Below, piece after piece: positions 10,097-26,769 of a DNA stretch of 32,000 nt (positions are counted from its first letter, which is position 1; every line of letters begins with the position of its first letter). Made by a program: the position numbers and the translations under genes. This stretch comes from Nanopusillaceae archaeon (GTDB lineage Archaea; Nanobdellota; Nanobdellia; Nanobdellales; Nanobdellaceae). The notes beneath the pieces were generated by a model. The model searched no databases and had not been told where the DNA came from. It saw only the letters and a program-made list of their open reading frames with translations. Location of the stretch: assembly GCA_049974095.1 (NCBI GenBank), contig JBMFJD010000005.1, forward strand, positions 1 to 32,000, read 5' to 3'.

Positions 10097-10336
10097 CTAT
10101 TCTGCAGAGATTAATGTAACTGTCCTTTCTACAAAATCTAAAGATCTTATTTTATCCAATACAAATTTTCTTATTTCTTCTAATGTTTCCCCCTCTATTT
10201 TTACTATTACATCATATTCTCCATAAACAACACTACTTTCCAATATTTTTATATTATTCTGTGATTTCTTAATACCTTCTAATACTACATTTTCCTTTCC
10301 AGGTTTTACATTAACTAATATATATGCTGTAATCAT
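10097..10336 (-). CDS. stand-alone Lrp/AsnC ligand-binding (RAM) domain protein
   Basis: 79 aa. AYILVNVKPGKE..VYGEYDVIVKIEGETLEEIRKFVLDKIRSLDFVERTVTLI fits the RAM fold pattern. There is no HTH. Confidence 0.75.
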   Translation of the reverse strand: MITAYILVNVKPGKENVVLEGIKKSQNNIKILESSVVYGEYDVIVKIEGETLEEIRKFVLDKIRSLDFVERTVTLISAE

Positions 10337-17588: not shown

Positions 17589-18260
17589 ATGAGAGGTATA
17601 TTAGGATTATTTGGAGGAAAGAAAAATCAACAAAAAAGAACAGATCAAAATCAAGAGCAAGAGATATCATCATTATTTCAAGATTTTACAAATCAAGCAC
17701 CAATAAACCAGCAAAATTTTAACCAAAACTTTGGAAATAATTTATTTAATCAAGTACCGCCTCCATCATTTAATCAAATGCCTCAGCCACAACAACAAAA
17801 CCAATTTCAAAATTTTCAACCACAACCACCATTTAATTTACCTCAGCCACAACAAAATGTTCCACAAATAGTTCCTTCATCACCAAAAGAAGAAAATAAT
17901 TTAGATACTAGATTAGAAGAATATGTAAACACAACTGTAGAAAATATTGTAGGAGAAAAATTATCGGAAATAAGAGATGAGTTAACACAAATAAAAGTAT
18001 GGAAAGAAAAAATAGATTATTTAGTAAATAGATTGCAAGAACAAATAGATAAATTAGATAATAAAATACAAGAAATGGATAATATGGCTACTAAAAAATT
18101 AGAAGAATATGATAAAAGTATGCAAGAAACTTCTACAGAAATTCAAGCATTACATAGATTAATTAGAACAATGATACCTGCTATTTCTGAATCTACAAAA
18201 GAATTAAAAGAGACAATTGATGAATTAAAATCCTTAAGAGATTATATAAAGAGACCATAA
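17589..18260 (+). CDS. Q/N/P/F-rich low-complexity plus C-terminal coiled-coil protein (paralogue A)
   Basis: 223 aa. MRGILGLFGGKKNQQ is followed by about 90 aa of Q/N/P/F repeats (NQFQNFQPQPPFNLPQPQQN) and then about 125 aa of heptad coiled coil. Confidence 0.6.
   Translation: MRGILGLFGGKKNQQKRTDQNQEQEISSLFQDFTNQAPINQQNFNQNFGNNLFNQVPPPSFNQMPQPQQQNQFQNFQPQPPFNLPQPQQNVPQIVPSSPKEENNLDTRLEEYVNTTVENIVGEKLSEIRDELTQIKVWKEKIDYLVNRLQEQIDKLDNKIQEMDNMATKKLEEYDKSMQETSTEIQALHRLIRTMIPAISESTKELKETIDELKSLRDYIKRP
17796..17819 (+). repeat. 24-nt exact repeat shared with 26638..26661 (opposite strand)
   Basis: CAAAACCAATTTCAAAATTTTCAA encodes (Q)NQFQNFQ in both paralogues. Confidence 0.9.
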
Positions 18261-18289: not shown

Positions 18290-18691
18290 ATGGATAAAAA
18301 TAAGGAAATAATTATTACAGCAATTACTTTATTAGCTTTATTAGGAGGTGGATTTATAATAGCACCATTTTTATATCCTATTTTCAATAGTCAAAATATA
18401 AATTTAAATCAGAATCAAATTTATCAAATATATCAAATAGAACAATATTGCCAATCTTTATGTTTATATGCAAAATATAATCTATCTGTTCAAAATCTAT
18501 TAAATTCCTGTTTATCATCTCCAAATTCAATACTATATAACTATTGGATTTCTGCAGGAGTAAATAATTGGGGATGTGAAGTATCTGAAAACTACTCAAA
18601 TCTATGCAACATAAATAATTATATTGTTTTAGATAATAATTGCAATATAATTGGTGTATTTTATAATAATAAGCAATTAAATATAACATGA
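18290..18691 (+). CDS. N-terminally anchored, Cys-rich putative surface protein
   Basis: 133 aa. MDKNKE is followed by the TM segment IIITAITLLALLGGGFIIAPFLYPIF. The ectodomain has 6 Cys and 3 N-x-S/T sequons (NLS, NYS, NIT). An ATGA overlap couples it to tatD. Confidence 0.55.
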   Translation: MDKNKEIIITAITLLALLGGGFIIAPFLYPIFNSQNINLNQNQIYQIYQIEQYCQSLCLYAKYNLSVQNLLNSCLSSPNSILYNYWISAGVNNWGCEVSENYSNLCNINNYIVLDNNCNIIGVFYNNKQLNIT

Positions 18692-19419
18692 AAATTATTG
18701 ATGCTCATTGTCATTTTGATAAATTTAGCAATATTGAAATAAAGAGAATTTTAAATAAATATGACAAAGATATAATAATTTTAACCGTTTCTGAAGATTT
18801 AGAATCTTCAATTAAAAATTTGACATTTAGTAAACTATATGAGAACATAATTCCTGCAATTGGCATACATCCTTGGAAAGTTGATAATGTTAAAGAAGAA
18901 GATATAAAATTTATTGAAAAAATAGTTAAAGAAGAAAAAATAAATATTCTTGGAGAAATTGGATTAGATAAGAAATTTAAACCAGATACATATGAAAAAC
19001 AAAAAGAAATTTTTGAAAAATTTTTAAAAATTGCAAAGGATTATGACTTAAAATTAAATCTTCATGCCCCAAATGCTTGGGATGATGTATTTAATCTATT
19101 AATAAAATATGATATTAAAAAAGCATATTTTCATTGGTATAGCGGAGATGAAAAGTTATTAGAAGAAATAGAAGAAAAAGGATATTTCATTGGTATAAAT
19201 GTATCTGCATTAATAAATAAAAAATATGAAAAATACATAGAAATAGCTAAAATAGATAATATAATAACAGAATCTGATGGCCCATATGAATATAAAGGAA
19301 TTATTCTTCATCCAGAAATGATAGAAAAGTTATATGATAAAATATCTGAAATTAAGAAAATAAAAAAGGAAAAATTATATGATATAATATTGAATAATTT
19401 TTCAAGATTTGTATATTAA
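18688..19419 (+). CDS. tatD: TatD-family metal-dependent hydrolase/nuclease
   Basis: IDAHCHFD, GEIGLD, NLHAP, FHWYSG and ITESDGPY are the TatD metal-ligand motifs, in order. Confidence 0.88.
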   Translation: MKIIDAHCHFDKFSNIEIKRILNKYDKDIIILTVSEDLESSIKNLTFSKLYENIIPAIGIHPWKVDNVKEEDIKFIEKIVKEEKINILGEIGLDKKFKPDTYEKQKEIFEKFLKIAKDYDLKLNLHAPNAWDDVFNLLIKYDIKKAYFHWYSGDEKLLEEIEEKGYFIGINVSALINKKYEKYIEIAKIDNIITESDGPYEYKGIILHPEMIEKLYDKISEIKKIKKEKLYDIILNNFSRFVY

Positions 19420-19515
19420 CATAGTGTTAAGCTCCTTTAACATATAGTTAATATTTATAAATTTTAGCATAGATAATAATTAACGTTATGTTAACATGTT
19501 TTAACATAAGGTTAA
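19416..19515. promoter_or_regulatory. array of four phased 15-bp palindromes, TTAACA-N3-TGTTAA
   Basis: 19416-19430 TTAACATAGTGTTAA (perfect); 19437-19451 TTAACATATAGTTAA; 19480-19494 TTAACGTTATGTTAA; 19501-19515 TTAACATAAGGTTAA. Start-to-start spacing is 21, 43 and 21 bp. Confidence 0.6.
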
Positions 19516-19524
19516 TCAATAATG

Positions 19525-19532
19525 TTTATAAA
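19525..19532 (+). promoter_or_regulatory. TATA box for tfe (leaderless geometry relative to the ATG at 19555)
   Basis: TTTATAAA is centred 26.5 nt upstream of ATG 19555, the same element and spacing as at ppa. Confidence 0.4.
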
Positions 19533-19554
19533 TACCAAAAAACCTTATATAGGT

Positions 19555-20067
19555 ATGAGCTACTTACTCAACGAAAACTATATAAAGATATTGGAATATA
19601 TAGCTAATAAAAAAGAATTTACAGAAAAAGAAATAAAAAGAGAATTAAAGATTAAAGAAGATGAAATTAGGAAGTTATTATATATATTAGAAGAGAATGG
19701 AGTTGTATATCCAATAAACATTATAAATAACAATGGAAAATTTGATTTCAGATGGGGTAATAAAATAGTTGGAGAAAAAGAGCTATTTTCATTTTTAGTA
19801 AAAAGAGAAATAGATAAATTTAAAAAAGAATTAGAAAAAACTCCAAGAACAATATATTATTGTGAAGAATGTAATATTGGTTATACACTTGATGAAGCAG
19901 AAGAAGATGATTTCAAATGTAAGGAATGTGGATCATTATTAGTAGAAAAAGAAAATTTCAGAATTTTCGAATTAGAAAATATAATAAATAATTTACAATC
20001 ATTGTTAGAAAAATATACAAAAGAGAAAAAAGAGAAAAAAGTTGCAAAGGCAAAAGGAAAGAAATAA
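19555..20067 (+). CDS. tfe: transcription factor E (TFE, TFIIE-alpha homologue)
   Basis: Winged helix (ILEYIANKKEFTEKEIKRELKIKEDEIRKLLYILEENGVV) plus Zn ribbon CEECN..CKECG. The ORF is open from ATG 19522, but the TATA geometry favours 19555. Confidence 0.85.
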   Translation: MSYLLNENYIKILEYIANKKEFTEKEIKRELKIKEDEIRKLLYILEENGVVYPINIINNNGKFDFRWGNKIVGEKELFSFLVKREIDKFKKELEKTPRTIYYCEECNIGYTLDEAEEDDFKCKECGSLLVEKENFRIFELENIINNLQSLLEKYTKEKKEKKVAKAKGKK

Positions 20068-20095: not shown

Positions 20096-21253
20096 ATGAT
20101 ATATAAGACAAGAATATATGATTTAACTGATATATTTGAAAGATCAAATTCTAATTTAATAAGGAAAAATTTAGAGAAAGGATATAAAGTATATGGAATA
20201 AAGTTGGAAAAATTAAAAGGATTAATTGGTTTTGAAATATTACCAAATAGAAGAATTGGAACTGAATTATCTGATATAGCTAAAAGATTTGGACTTGGAG
20301 GAATATTACATTCTGACGAACTTCCAGGATATGGGATTAGTAATGAAGAAGTAGAAAAAATAAAAGAAAAATTAAATTGTAATGATAATGATGGATATGT
20401 ATTATTAATTTCTCCAAATTATGAAATTTCTAAAAAAGTATTTTCATTAATAATAAATAGAATAAATGAAATGATTATAGGAGTACCAAAAGATACAAGA
20501 CAAGCAAATGAAGATGGAACTACATCTTTTTTAAGACCTCAACCAGGTTCTGAAAGAATGTATCCAGAAACTGATCATCCATATATATTTATTGATAAAG
20601 AGATTGAGAATAAAGGAAAATATGAAATTATAAGATATAAAATAAGTTATGGAGATATAAGAGATATTTATGAAATATATAGATTAAAAGATTTTGACAA
20701 AGATTTATATTTAGAATTAATAAAAGAAGGAAAAGAAGTTTTAAATTCTATAGATCCAGAATTTATTAAAAAATTATTAAAAGAAATTGGCTTTAATGAT
20801 AAACAAATAGAAAATATAATATGGAATGAAAATATTTATCATATATTAAAATTATCAATAGACTTGGATCCTCAAACAATATATTATTTATTTTTTCAGA
20901 TGATTGGAGAAACAGAGAATTTATATAAAGAAAAAATAGAGGAATTAGATATAGATTTTATATATAAAATAAAGGATTACTTAAAAGAAAAAAAGATAGT
21001 AAGAAATGCTTTACCAATAATATATTATGAATATATAAAAAATAAAAAAGAAATAGAGGAAATAATAAAAGAAAAGAATTTATATAAAAGAAATACAGAA
21101 GAATTAGAAAAAGAAATAAAAGAATTCTTAAAAAATATAAATATAAATGATAAAAAGAATATTTATTCTAATGTATTTAGCAAATTTAAGTATGTAGCAG
21201 AAAGTGAAGATATTAAAAAAGTATTAGAGAAAATATTAGAAAATAAAAATTAA
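20096..21253 (+). CDS. gatE: Glu-tRNA(Gln) amidotransferase subunit E, C-terminal part only (split or truncated gene)
   Basis: IFERSNSNLIRKNLEKGYKVYGIKL..ILPNRRIGTELSD..GGILHSDELPGYGISNEEVEKIKEKL..GVPKDTRQANEDGTTSFLRPQPGSERMYPETDHP aligns from about residue 275 of full-length GatE. An in-frame stop at 20084-20086 closes the frame upstream. Confidence 0.85.
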   Translation: MIYKTRIYDLTDIFERSNSNLIRKNLEKGYKVYGIKLEKLKGLIGFEILPNRRIGTELSDIAKRFGLGGILHSDELPGYGISNEEVEKIKEKLNCNDNDGYVLLISPNYEISKKVFSLIINRINEMIIGVPKDTRQANEDGTTSFLRPQPGSERMYPETDHPYIFIDKEIENKGKYEIIRYKISYGDIRDIYEIYRLKDFDKDLYLELIKEGKEVLNSIDPEFIKKLLKEIGFNDKQIENIIWNENIYHILKLSIDLDPQTIYYLFFQMIGETENLYKEKIEELDIDFIYKIKDYLKEKKIVRNALPIIYYEYIKNKKEIEEIIKEKNLYKRNTEELEKEIKEFLKNININDKKNIYSNVFSKFKYVAESEDIKKVLEKILENKN

Positions 21254-25682: not shown

Positions 25683-26434
25683 AATAATATATCTATAAAA
25701 CTATTTCTTATGCCTGGTAAGAATCCCAAGTAAAATAACATTAAAAATAATACATCCTGTAGATCTTTATCTTTTATCCAATATTTTATATAAATTGCTG
25801 AAATAATTGTTAAAGATAATTTAATTGAATAAAAAATAAAGGGATTATGATATTGATAAATTAATAAATTTAATAAATTATGTTCTGAAGGTAAATTAAA
25901 TATAAATACTGATAAAATAGAAAAAACAGTTTCATATATTTCCCCAAGAAATGATAAAATAAACATTTTTTCTTTAAAAGAAAAATAAATAATTATAGAA
26001 ATTAAGAAAAAGAAAAATATTAAAGGAATTATATTAATTGGCCTTCCATATATAAAAAAAGGAATTTCTAAAATTAAAACAATTATTAAAAAATAAAAAT
26101 AAAATTCTCTATATTTATAAAAGAATAAAACTGGTAGAAATGCCAATAATATCCATAATTCTAATAATGGAGTAAAAAGTAGATATGTTTTAATTGTATA
26201 TCCTAAATCTATATTTACTCTAGGTATAATAAATATAATTGTTAAAAGAATTAAATCTAGCAAAAAATATTTGTCTATTAATACTTTCCTTTTTTTCACA
26301 AAGAAATAATAAAATAAAATAAAAACAAGAATAAATAAAAAACCATATAATAATGTATTATAGAAGTTATATTGATATTGGTAACCGATTACAGGATATA
26401 TAAAATATTTATAAAAAAACTCTTGTAAATTCAT
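25679..26434 (-). CDS. polytopic membrane protein, possibly DUF63 family
   Basis: 251 aa, about 7 TM helices. N-terminal FIYPVIGYQYQYNFYNTLLYGFLF resembles the DUF63 ..P....gYN.vnTl.Ya pattern. Confidence 0.5.
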   Translation of the reverse strand: MNLQEFFYKYFIYPVIGYQYQYNFYNTLLYGFLFILVFILFYYFFVKKRKVLIDKYFLLDLILLTIIFIIPRVNIDLGYTIKTYLLFTPLLELWILLAFLPVLFFYKYREFYFYFLIIVLILEIPFFIYGRPINIIPLIFFFFLISIIIYFSFKEKMFILSFLGEIYETVFSILSVFIFNLPSEHNLLNLLIYQYHNPFIFYSIKLSLTIISAIYIKYWIKDKDLQDVLFLMLFYLGFLPGIRNSFIDILL

Positions 26435-26769
26435 TAACGTCTAAACATATACTGATAATATTGCAGTAAAGTATTTAACAATGTAATTATATTATCTAAT
26501 TTATTTGCAATTAAATCTAACTTTGAATTTAATGCTTGAACCATTGTATTTAAATCATTTTGTGGTTGAGGTGGAAGATTTGGTAAATATGCTTGTGGAT
26601 TCAACTGACCAGGTTGCTGAAAATTATTTCCTTGAAATTGAAAATTTTGAAATTGGTTTTGAGGGAAATCATATGGAGGATTTGGCATTCCTTGTCCAAA
26701 TGGTTCATTAAGTGGTGGAAGATCTTCCTCATTTTTTTTAAATATATTCTTTATAAAGTCTAGTGCCAT
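26434..26769 (-). CDS. Q/N/P/F-rich low-complexity plus coiled-coil protein (paralogue B)
   Basis: 111 aa. MALDFIKNIFKKNEED is followed by PQNQFQNFQFQGNNFQQPGQLNPQ..PPQPQN and then the helical LNTMVQALNSKLDLIANKLDNIITLLNTLL. Confidence 0.55.
   Translation of the reverse strand: MALDFIKNIFKKNEEDLPPLNEPFGQGMPNPPYDFPQNQFQNFQFQGNNFQQPGQLNPQAYLPNLPPQPQNDLNTMVQALNSKLDLIANKLDNIITLLNTLLQYYQYMFRR
26638..26661 (-). repeat. 24-nt exact repeat shared with 17796..17819
   Basis: The plus strand reads TTGAAAATTTTGAAATTGGTTTTG, which is the reverse complement of CAAAACCAATTTCAAAATTTTCAA. Confidence 0.9.

Follow-up and report, generated by a model that had tools for sequence, protein, structure and literature searches.

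The spacer between tatD and tfe in a Nanopusillaceae archaeon, a tiny nanoarchaeon of hot springs, raises a simple question. The genome is reduced and has few transcription factors, yet its only four clustered exact copies of one palindromic motif stand at the promoter of tfe, the gene of a general transcription factor; what are these palindromes for? TFE helps RNA polymerase to open promoter DNA, and the need for it varies with temperature and promoter (PMC5861453). Sulfolobus has less of the TFE complex in stationary phase, which led to the suggestion that it serves as a lever of global control (PMC4495717). As far as our literature search went, no description of the control of tfe itself was found for any archaeon. 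An operator cluster at this position could show how DPANN archaea regulate transcription globally.

Palindromes and promoter elements between tatD and tfe

The window is the whole stretch of DNA that was analysed, 32,000 nucleotides of contig JBMFJD010000005.1. The features that concern us are as follows, with a strand where one applies.

18688..19419, + strand: tatD, encoding a TatD-family hydrolase (Pfam TatD_DNase, E=2e-53)
19415..19516: two-module layout found by repeat search, a 38-nt site-6 bp-site unit present twice (19415-19452 and 19479-19516)
19416..19430: site 1, TTAACATAGTGTTAA = TTAAC-ATAGT-GTTAA, perfect, centred at -132 from the tfe ATG
19431..19436: 6-bp linker between sites 1 and 2, drifting freely among species (column agreement 57%)
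19437..19451: site 2, TTAACATATAGTTAA = TTAAC-ATATA-GTTAA, one mismatch to TTAACA-N3-TGTTAA, centred at -111
19454..19462: TATA1, TTTATAAAT, candidate distal TATA-like element between the site pairs (columns 19452-19466 agree at 95% in 14 orthologues)
19480..19494: site 3, TTAACGTTATGTTAA = TTAAC-GTTAT-GTTAA, one mismatch to TTAACA-N3-TGTTAA, centred at -68
19489..19497: extra half-site TGTTAACAT, overlapping site 3 and forming a GTTAAC box, read from the sequence
19501..19515: site 4, the proximal one, TTAACATAAGGTTAA = TTAAC-ATAAG-GTTAA, one mismatch to TTAACA-N3-TGTTAA, centred at -47
19516..19524, + strand: BRE-position element TCAATAATG, nearly invariant (97% agreement)
19525..19533, + strand: TATA2, TTTATAAAT, the TATA box of the tfe promoter, starting 30 nt before the ATG (98% agreement)
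19555..20067, + strand: tfe (TFE alpha), winged helix plus zinc ribbon (Pfam TFIIE_alpha, E=7e-7, above cut-off; NCBIfam TFE alpha over its full length, E=9e-19)

Reading the sequence bore out much of what the first-pass annotation had described. The four 15-bp inverted repeats have the coordinates and mismatch counts that it gave, their start-to-start spacings of 21, 43 and 21 bp are reproduced, and both TTTATAAAT elements and the extra half-site were located. Two of its statements stood only in part. The repeated unit had been given as TTAACA-N3-TGTTAA; the palindromes are real, but the conserved unit is TTAAC-N5-GTTAA, a core that 4/4 sites match exactly. The fuller consensus, TTAACAT-N-ATGTTAA, holds less firmly at positions 6, 7, 9 and 10, with A, T, A and T at only about 65-68%. 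Similarly, a gap of 102 bp between tatD and tfe holds only up to an ATG at 19522, which lies in the BRE/TATA region and, in most orthologues, in another reading frame; up to the conserved start, ATG 19555, the gap is 135 bp (19420-19554).

The tatD stop codon, TAA (19417-19419), falls inside the left half of site 1. The two 38-nt modules are 64 bp apart and 76% identical, and the TTAA centres lie at relative positions 2.5, 13.5, 23.5, 34.5, 66.5, 77.5, 87.5 and 98.5. The right half of site 3 is ATTAA in most members of the genus. Several orthologues, among them L005, L007 and L011, have GTTAAC boxes at other sites too.

The tfe gene has a single homologue in most genomes of the family. Across the source genome, the octamer TTTATAAA is most frequent 32 to 29 nt before start codons (43/104 occurrences, mode -30); the distance of TATA2 from the ATG thus implies a leaderless or near-leaderless tfe mRNA. 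Site 4 lies directly upstream of the BRE/TATA of this working promoter and ends 2 nt before the BRE-position hexamer. The element TCAATAATG is atypical by the promoter profile of the genome, in which BRE positions are A-rich and G occurs at -1 in 3% of promoters. As for TATA1, its core TTTATAAA is palindromic, its BRE position consists of the right half of site 2 plus a T (GTTAAT), and a start about 23-30 bp downstream of it would land inside site 3. No ORF starts at the canonical distance from TATA1, a putative promoter element.

Exact copies of TTAAC-N5-GTTAA number 5 in the whole 764-kb genome, where half-site counts predict about 1.2, and 4/5 are in the tatD-tfe spacer. Allowing up to one mismatch to TTAACA-N3-TGTTAA yields 9 sites genome-wide, 4/9 of them in the same spacer. 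Shuffling the window gives an expectation of 0.59 matches, and 0/100 shuffles reach 4. The chance expectation of about 0.04 copies of TTAACAT per 100 bp, put forward in the first-pass annotation, agrees with measured values of 0.026 on one strand and 0.049 on both. Hence, chance is excluded as the source of the cluster. Random scatter through the genome, named beforehand as one outcome that would speak against an operator, is likewise excluded: the motif is essentially unique to this spacer. Each of 13 genomes of the genus has no more than 4 exact copies at tfe, with 0-2 in the rest of the genome.

The fifth exact site, at C6:8709, precedes a winged-helix+AAA gene that exists as two copies in the source genome only and in 0/18 family genomes. 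This gene is ruled out as that of the conserved regulator on that ground, and it is probably part of a mobile element.

Conservation of the sites and TTAAC boxes at other promoters

The sites are kept upstream of orthologous tfe genes in 13 genomes of the genus and in two sister genera, with half-sites fixed and inner bases and linkers variable. Absence from the orthologous regions, another outcome named beforehand as speaking against an operator, is thereby excluded too. Over 14 orthologous spacers, column agreement is 86-100% in the half-sites, 63-91% in the inner 5 nt and 57-69% in the linkers. At site 1, the half-site columns agree at 96-100% and the inner 5 nt at 63%; at site 4, the half-site columns agree at 99-100%. 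Judged by alignment, this is a classic phylogenetic footprint. The closest relative (G001) shows that the constraint is less than absolute: it has no exact copy at tfe, since each of the four sites there carries a single mismatch. In genus g2, the tfe sites are absent, yet GTTAA boxes still precede tmcA, which encodes an RNA acetyltransferase.

The geometry is conserved as well. Site centres are at -132, -111, -68 and -47 in the genus of the window and in genus g4, and at -123, -102, -70 and -49 in genus g3; site 4 itself stays at -47/-48 in the former two and at -49 in g3. Sites within a pair are always 21 bp apart. From pair to pair, two genera have 43 bp and the third (g3) has 32 bp, a difference of 11 bp, or one helical turn. 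A gap that changes by one turn fits dimers cooperating on one face of the DNA. The four-site layout, with strict inverted orientation within every pair, is common to all three genera.

Two further promoters carry the boxes. Comparing the source genome with a closed relative of 605,887 bp (G004) by reciprocal best hits and a weight matrix, we obtained as the top four tfe (17.7 bits), tmcA (13.0), a third-place site (10.2) that is doubtful and may lie in coding sequence, and histone (7.4), against a noise floor below 6. Scans for exact and one-mismatch sites, run over the source genome, its genus and the whole of the closed relative, added no conserved promoter to tfe, tmcA and histone. The spacer from a reverse-gyrase half-gene to tmcA holds 14 TTAAC boxes and 5 near-palindromes, and in G004 it has a palindrome at -49. 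It shares with tfe the TTAAC(A/T) box and a phasing of 10-11 bp, but its 14 copies are mostly same-strand direct repeats rather than four discrete palindromes. At the histone promoter, 9 genomes of the genus have a near-palindrome at -47 with a half-site 21 bp upstream, and the source genome has a one-mismatch site centred at -69. The histone gene module, with two sites at -68/-47, thus repeats the geometry of the proximal tfe pair. Most likely, one protein acts at tfe, the histone module and the tmcA ladder, which would form a very small regulon of core information processing; since the tmcA boxes are direct repeats, it has to be assumed that a single protein can read both arrangements.

Phased, flexible TpA steps could in principle fix a histone oligomer (hypernucleosome) upstream of tfe, and no sequence-specific regulator would then be needed. 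The eight TTAA cores together with TATA1 do recur about every 10.5 bp, the tmcA spacer also has roughly one box per turn, and the source genome encodes two histone homologues. However, the flanking C and G of TTAAC/GTTAA are 90-100% conserved in a genome of 25% GC while neighbouring bases drift, which points to base-specific reading, something that contacts between histone and DNA do not provide. The strict inverted orientation kept in three genera also tells against positioning of this kind, and elsewhere positioning works through statistical preferences rather than through invariant pentamers. We consider this explanation improbable.

No better placed is the proposal that the cluster is an element of chromosome structure, that is, a centromere-like partition site or an SMC-stalling or domain-boundary site for a filament former such as a TrmBL2-like protein, with the tfe spacer merely offering free DNA. 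In Thermococcus, closely spaced TrmBL2 sites mark a domain boundary and stall SMC (PMC11840125). Outlier clusters of half-sites are indeed only two per genome, the tfe and tmcA spacers, in both the source genome and G004, and in the latter they are about 40 kb apart. The proximal site, however, stands at a fixed distance from the TATA box and from the start codon across three genera, and a purely structural element would have no need of the -47/-68 geometry recurring at histone or of the palindrome at -49 before tmcA in G004. Moreover, the clusters lie away from the GC-skew extremes and from cdc6.

It is highly improbable that the palindromes act as RNA hairpins governing how the tfe mRNA is translated or how stable it is, with sites 3 and 4 borne by transcripts from the distal TATA (and sites 1 and 2 by antisense ones). 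The distal TATA is conserved and the strand folds better than its shuffles (-29.3 kcal/mol, z=-2.8 at 37 C), but such a fold is a trivial consequence of the palindromes. The stems are conserved in sequence with no compensatory change, inner bases that would pair between sites do not co-vary, and A/U-rich stems of 5 bp are unstable at hot-spring temperatures. Since the canonical promoter lies downstream of all four sites, the main tfe mRNA does not contain them, and a search of Rfam gave no match.

Finally, a replication origin with ORB-like repeats bound by Orc1/Cdc6 is scarcely credible: repeated inverted elements unique in the genome and set in an AT-rich spacer would suit one, but the motif is unlike ORB or mini-ORB dyads, orc1/cdc6 is not adjacent but on another contig (C1:76391-77623), beside polD and with its own AT-rich upstream spacer bearing an ORB-like G-string element, and in G004 tfe (398.6 kb) sits at no turning point of GC skew (extremes at about 0/590 kb and 300 kb, cdc6/polD at about 0 kb).

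A putative operator cluster and its candidate binders

With a probability of about 0.78, we read the tatD-tfe spacer as a conserved cluster of operators, all for a single sequence-specific DNA-binding protein with two-fold symmetry. The operator reading of the first-pass annotation thus gains support from the uniqueness of the motif, the footprint in orthologues and the conserved paired phasing, from which we infer binding by a regulator. Because related species keep the palindromes, they are predicted to be docking sites for a regulator that sets the amount of TFE.

One dimer would occupy each 15-bp palindrome, with half-site centres 10 bp apart, and two pairs with 21 bp within a pair would bring all four sites onto one face of the helix, where the dimers might touch each other as a dimer of dimers or a higher oligomer. 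As the proximal site (-47) abuts the BRE/TATA of the canonical leaderless tfe promoter, the bound protein would set how easily TBP and TFB load. From position alone, we favour a protein that stimulates the proximal promoter and at the same time blocks initiation from the distal TATA; the latter is proposed because site 2 overlies the BRE position of the distal element and site 3 its expected start. If the protein spread as a filament, repression would be expected instead.

The source genome encodes about 15 winged-helix or related candidates. The first-pass annotation had seen no cognate DNA-binding regulator gene nearby, and indeed the window contains none. Its sole related gene encodes a stand-alone Lrp-type ligand-binding domain with no DNA-binding part. 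Our tentative best guess at the binder is a TrmBL2-like protein of 277 aa (G000 C4:25807-26640), which matches Pfam TrmB (1.5e-20), PDB 5bpd (3e-22) and NCBIfam NF041141 (4e-25, below the equivalog cut-off). Present in 18/19 family genomes, it is the best-conserved regulator of the source genome. A wHTH+V4R protein (C3:21703-22443) is an unlikely choice and a DUF2250 wHTH protein (C4:5937-6263) a somewhat poorer one still; something else takes the rest of the probability.

Genus g2, in which tfe has no sites, has all three of the TrmBL2-like, wHTH+V4R and AAA+wHTH proteins (the last at C2:23318-24238 in the source genome). Profiling of candidates against g2 is uninformative, since they occur there and g2 keeps its boxes before tmcA. 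The motif was not found in the candidates' own promoters, and for the TrmBL2-like and wHTH+V4R proteins no site precedes the gene in any of 17-18 orthologues. A literature search on Nanopusillus promoters and on DUF2250 found nothing relevant.

A wider proposal, which we hold to be doubtful, is that of a minimal master switch, in which one conserved protein would use TTAAC boxes at three promoters to set the dosage of TFE, histone and TmcA jointly. That protein may be the TrmBL2-like chromatin protein, acting as a sensor of temperature or growth state. If so, transcription, chromatin and RNA stability would be tuned globally through a three-gene regulon in reduced, host-dependent hyperthermophiles. 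Two relatives, Nanobdella aerobiophila MJ1 and Nanopusillus acidilobi, have been cultivated with their hosts, which makes the operator prediction directly testable.

Comparison with known archaeal operators

The HSR1 operator of Archaeoglobus fulgidus is CTAAC-N5-GTTAG (PMC9133787, PMC2396416). HSR1 sites and those of Phr from Pyrococcus, which stand in promoters of archaeal hyperthermophiles and are read by a symmetric winged-helix dimer (PMC9133787, PMC2396416), share with the tfe sites inverted pentamers, N5 spacing and four of five bases per half-site (TAAC...GTTA); 4/4 tfe sites take the form xTAAC-N5-GTTAx. Their placement differs: HSR1/Phr sites are downstream of BRE/TATA, over the start, and repress hsp20, AAA+ ATPase genes and the regulator's own gene, whereas all four tfe sites are upstream of the working TATA (-132 to -47), and only relative to the candidate distal TATA would one of them, site 3, cover a start. 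Upstream of hsp20 (C1:66859-67308) and the thermosome gene (C3:19500-21155), there is no site with fewer than three mismatches. No Phr/HSR1 homologue was recognised among the winged-helix genes, all of which are listed by scans with the general models HTH_20, HTH_24, TrmB, HTH_45 and PadR. PDB searches with three winged-helix candidates did not return the Phr structure, and an NCBIfam scan of the 246-aa and 284-aa candidates named no Phr-like family. The 246-aa protein is ArsR-like, with a V4R domain instead of the coiled coil of Phr.

In Thermococcales, TrmBL1/Tgr activates from upstream and represses from downstream of BRE/TATA through the glycolytic motif TATCAC-N5-GTGATA (PMC4706686). An extended winged-helix dimer reads this motif, whose ..AC-N5-GT.. 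frame recurs in the tfe palindromes; the half-sites differ (ATCAC versus TTAAC), and the tfe motif has no sugar-metabolism regulon. TrmBL2 binds as a tetramer to about two helical turns and forms cooperative filaments (PMC4877046), and it gives discrete AT-rich ChIP peaks (PMC4877046, PMC11840125). It is described as largely non-specific, with AT-rich ChIP motifs. The TrmBL2-like protein of the source genome is a candidate binder of the tfe sites. This member of the TrmB family is kept throughout the range of the sites, and also in g2, which has none at tfe.

The Ss-LrpB box, with a SELEX optimum of TTGCAA[AAT/ATT]TTGCAA (PMC2715240), has the same 5-5-5 geometry as the tfe sites. The Lrp-type proteins of the source genome suit them less well. 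The recognition residues S34, E35, G36, A37 and R39 of Lrp1 (C14:10378-10809) predict TACGA-WWW-TCGTA by the published code (PMC2715240), and TACGAAATTAGTA, which fits this pattern, stands before the gene of Lrp1 itself; Lrp1 is rejected as the binder, as the code assigns it TACGA sites, not TTAAC. Lrp2 is a fused pseudo-dimer with two unlike helix-turn-helix units, and hence a poor fit to a symmetric palindrome. Lrp-type clusters have sites two to three helical turns apart and an activating site a few bp upstream of BRE (PMC2995911), and those of Ptr2, Ss-LrpB, LysM and FL11, like the tfe cluster, consist of imperfect 13-17 bp inverted repeats with AT-rich centres on one helical face. With 15-bp sites, a 21-bp spacing and a proximal site beside BRE, the tfe cluster has the arrangement that PMC2995911 describes for the Lrp/FFRP family.

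Palindromes and start codon in the tatD-tfe spacer

The first-pass annotation had described four palindromes and two identical TATA-like elements ahead of tfe, a basal transcription factor gene, and all six are present:

18688-19419: tatD (Pfam TatD_DNase, 2e-53)
19416, 19437, 19480, 19501: starts of four 15-bp palindromes between tatD and tfe (sites 1-4, distal to proximal)
19454 and 19525: two TTTATAAAT elements in the spacer (TATA1 and TATA2)
19555-20067: tfe (TFIIE_alpha above the Pfam cut-off, with a full-length NCBIfam TFE-alpha match)

All four palindromes match the core TTAAC-N5-GTTAA exactly; they form two [site-6 bp-site] modules, which share 76% identity and repeat at a distance of 64 bp. 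The gap had been given as 102 bp, a figure that counts to ATG 19522; the spacer measures 135 bp up to the conserved ATG 19555. The former, the ORF-finder start of tfe, lies within the BRE/TATA region in a frame that differs from that of the gene in most orthologues; thus, 19555 is the real start. Downstream, 28 bp separate tfe from a 385-aa protein (20096-21253, + strand) that has a GAD domain only and resembles a single fragment of a split GatE; after a further 24 bp comes a HIT-family gene. All three may be transcribed as an operon from the tfe promoter. Elsewhere in the window, the proteins at 17589-18260 (+) and 26434-26769 (-), for which no clear family was found, have N-terminal halves that consist of long low-complexity sequence rich in Q, N and P (NQQNFNQNF... 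and QNQFQNFQFQGNNFQQ..., respectively), and the C-terminal half of the former is a coiled coil.

The source genome (764 kb, 25% GC, 48 contigs) has Nanobdella aerobiophila MJ1 and strain YN1 among its same-genus matches, which places it with the hot-spring Nanoarchaeota. Shuffles of the window give an expectation of 0.59 sites, and at least four occur in 0 of 100. Genome-wide, about 1.2 exact sites would be expected from the numbers of half-sites (946 x 953 over 763,811 bp); five are found, four of them in the spacer. Half-sites per 150-bp window single out two loci, with 12 at 24.7 kb of contig C10 (the tmcA promoter) and 9 at tfe, while all others hold at most five, and the same two stand out in the closed relative G004 (605,887 bp, compared in full). 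Random scatter, which the first-pass annotation had named as a possible objection, is evidently not the case.

Conservation, geometry and promoter context

Among 41 related genomes, 37 yielded a tfe gene. All 12 other genus members, and likewise the sister genera g3 and g4, keep the boxes in the tatD-tfe spacer, which answers the further concern that orthologous upstream regions might lack them; the boxes are absent in g2, the fourth genus of the family, and in ten more distant lineages. Over 14 alignable spacers, agreement is 86-100% for half-site columns, 63-91% for the inner five bases and 57-69% for the 6-bp linkers. The 44 distinct sites give the consensus TTAACAT-N-ATGTTAA, with TTAAC/GTTAA 90-100% conserved and A6/T7/A9/T10 65-68%. 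In the closest relative, strain YN1, each of the four sites carries exactly one mismatch and none is exact; the system may be weakening there.

Site centres lie at -132, -111, -68 and -47 relative to the ATG in the window's genus and in g4, and at -123, -102, -70 and -49 in g3. Spacing within pairs is always 21 bp; from one pair to the next it is either 43 or 32 bp, values that differ by one helical turn. Hence, the four sites stay on one DNA face despite the 11-bp change, as interacting bound proteins would demand.

The octamer TTTATAAA is concentrated 32-29 nt upstream of start codons in this genome (43 of 104 occurrences, mode -30), and TATA2 starts at exactly -30, which makes this a canonical leaderless-type promoter. 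Between the end of site 4 and TATA2 lie nine bases, TCAATAATG, which are 97% conserved and also unusual for this genome, where BRE positions are rich in A and G occupies -1 in 3% of promoters. TATA1 is 95% conserved; its BRE position is filled by site 2 and its expected start point is covered by site 3.

It is conceivable that the phased TTAA steps serve to position histones, although neither the invariant flanking C/G nor the strict inverted orientation is accounted for in this way. A structured RNA is rejected: the predicted fold (z=-2.8) consists of the palindromes pairing only, its stems keep their sequence and show no compensatory changes, the main tfe promoter lies downstream of them, and a search of the spacer for known RNA families gave no match. 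A replication origin is rejected, since orc1/cdc6 lies beside polD on contig C1 and, in G004, cdc6/polD sits at about 0 kb at the GC-skew turn and tfe at 398.6 kb. The spacer before orc1/cdc6-polD (C1:75004-76390) is itself a probable origin region; an ORB-like element, TTTCCTCTTTGAAATGGGGGT, lies there at roughly 76140-76165, and some 1 kb of this spacer looks like coding sequence that lacks an ATG start.

The tmcA and histone promoters

C10:24702-24929: TTAAC ladder between a reverse-gyrase helicase half-gene and tmcA
C14:13416-13643, minus strand: histone gene
C14:13644-13730: its promoter (orthologous loci L128-L145)

The ladder, the sole further half-site cluster in the genome, comprises 14 same-strand TTAAC boxes, five of which read as near-palindromes TTAAC-N5-(A/T)TTAA. 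The histone promoter has a one-mismatch site, TTAAGATCATGTTAA, centred at -69. In nine further members of the genus, this promoter reads GTTAA-6 bp-TTAAACAAATGTTAA-10 bp-TATA, with a GTTAA half-site 21 bp upstream of TTAAACAAATGTTAA; the positions, -68 and -47, match tfe sites 3 and 4. A regulon scan against G004 (reciprocal best hits and a weight matrix, 543 orthologue pairs) ranked tfe at 17.7 bits, tmcA at 13.0, one doubtful match at 10.2 and histone at 7.4, with the 99th percentile at 3.9. The hsp20 and thermosome promoters of the source genome were searched and contain no site.

Separately, a 243-aa gene specific to this strain, which combines a winged helix with an MCM-like AAA part, exists in two 93%-identical copies (C6:7931-8740 and C9:353-1160) and in 0 of 18 family genomes. 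Its promoter carries GTTAAC-N4-GGTTAAC and a CATGTGT-N3-ACACATG palindrome between two TATA boxes, and the gene is probably part of a mobile element.

Candidate binders and proposed working

Five winged-helix Pfam models, together with Pfam, NCBIfam and PDB searches, yielded the following.

Candidate DNA-binding proteins
TrmBL2-like protein, 277 aa
wHTH+V4R protein, 246 aa
Winged-helix protein with S-layer-like domain, 284 aa
AAA+wHTH protein, 306 aa
DUF2250 winged-helix protein, 108 aa
HTH_3/Cys protein, 109 aa
Three winged-helix-Cys and three membrane-anchored winged-helix paralogues, inside surface-protein operons
One canonical Lrp and one fused double Lrp

Own-promoter sites and presence/absence profiles picked out no single candidate. 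The canonical Lrp (C14:10378-10809) was rejected: to its recognition residues, S-E-G-A..R, the published FFRP code assigns TACGA-WWW-TCGTA (PMC2715240), which is present before its own gene as TACGAAATTAGTA. The fused Lrp has two DNA-reading heads, unlike each other. A 79-aa protein (10097-10336, -), judged by its sequence to be a stand-alone Lrp-type ligand-binding (RAM) domain that lacks a DNA-binding domain, could act as a modulator of either Lrp protein.

As a judgement rather than a result, we rank the TrmBL2-like protein first, because the TrmB family reads ..AC-N5-GT.. palindromes and exerts positive control from sites upstream of BRE/TATA and negative control from sites downstream of it (PMC4706686); because TrmBL2, a tetramer with cooperative spreading and discrete AT-rich peaks in vivo (PMC4877046, PMC11840125), could serve four palindromes and a 14-box ladder alike; and because, of the family's regulators, this one shows the strongest conservation (77-89% identity within the genus).

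Most likely, dimers of one regulator would fill the palindromes, cooperating in two pairs along a single face of the DNA. The dimer at the proximal site would contact the TBP/TFB-BRE/TATA complex at a promoter whose BRE is off-consensus, thereby setting initiation frequency, and occupancy would simultaneously shut the distal TATA. Activation, to which we give a probability of roughly 50%, is argued from the site that abuts from upstream, by analogy with TrmBL1, Ptr2 and LysM (PMC4706686, PMC2995911). Repression, which would instead follow from spreading across the TATA, seems only somewhat less probable, and an effect in neither direction improbable.

Among known systems, the HSR1 operator (PMC9133787, PMC2396416) differs from the tfe motif by a single base in each half-site; however, site position and regulon differ, and the winged-helix Pfam, NCBIfam and PDB searches recognised no Phr/HSR1 homologue in this genome, which argues against membership. 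The site layout fits both Lrp-type and TrmB-type operator clusters, and the element is thus of a familiar kind. What is new is that it targets a basal initiation factor, that the motif is used almost exclusively at the tfe promoter, and that the tfe boxes are linked to the histone and tmcA promoters.
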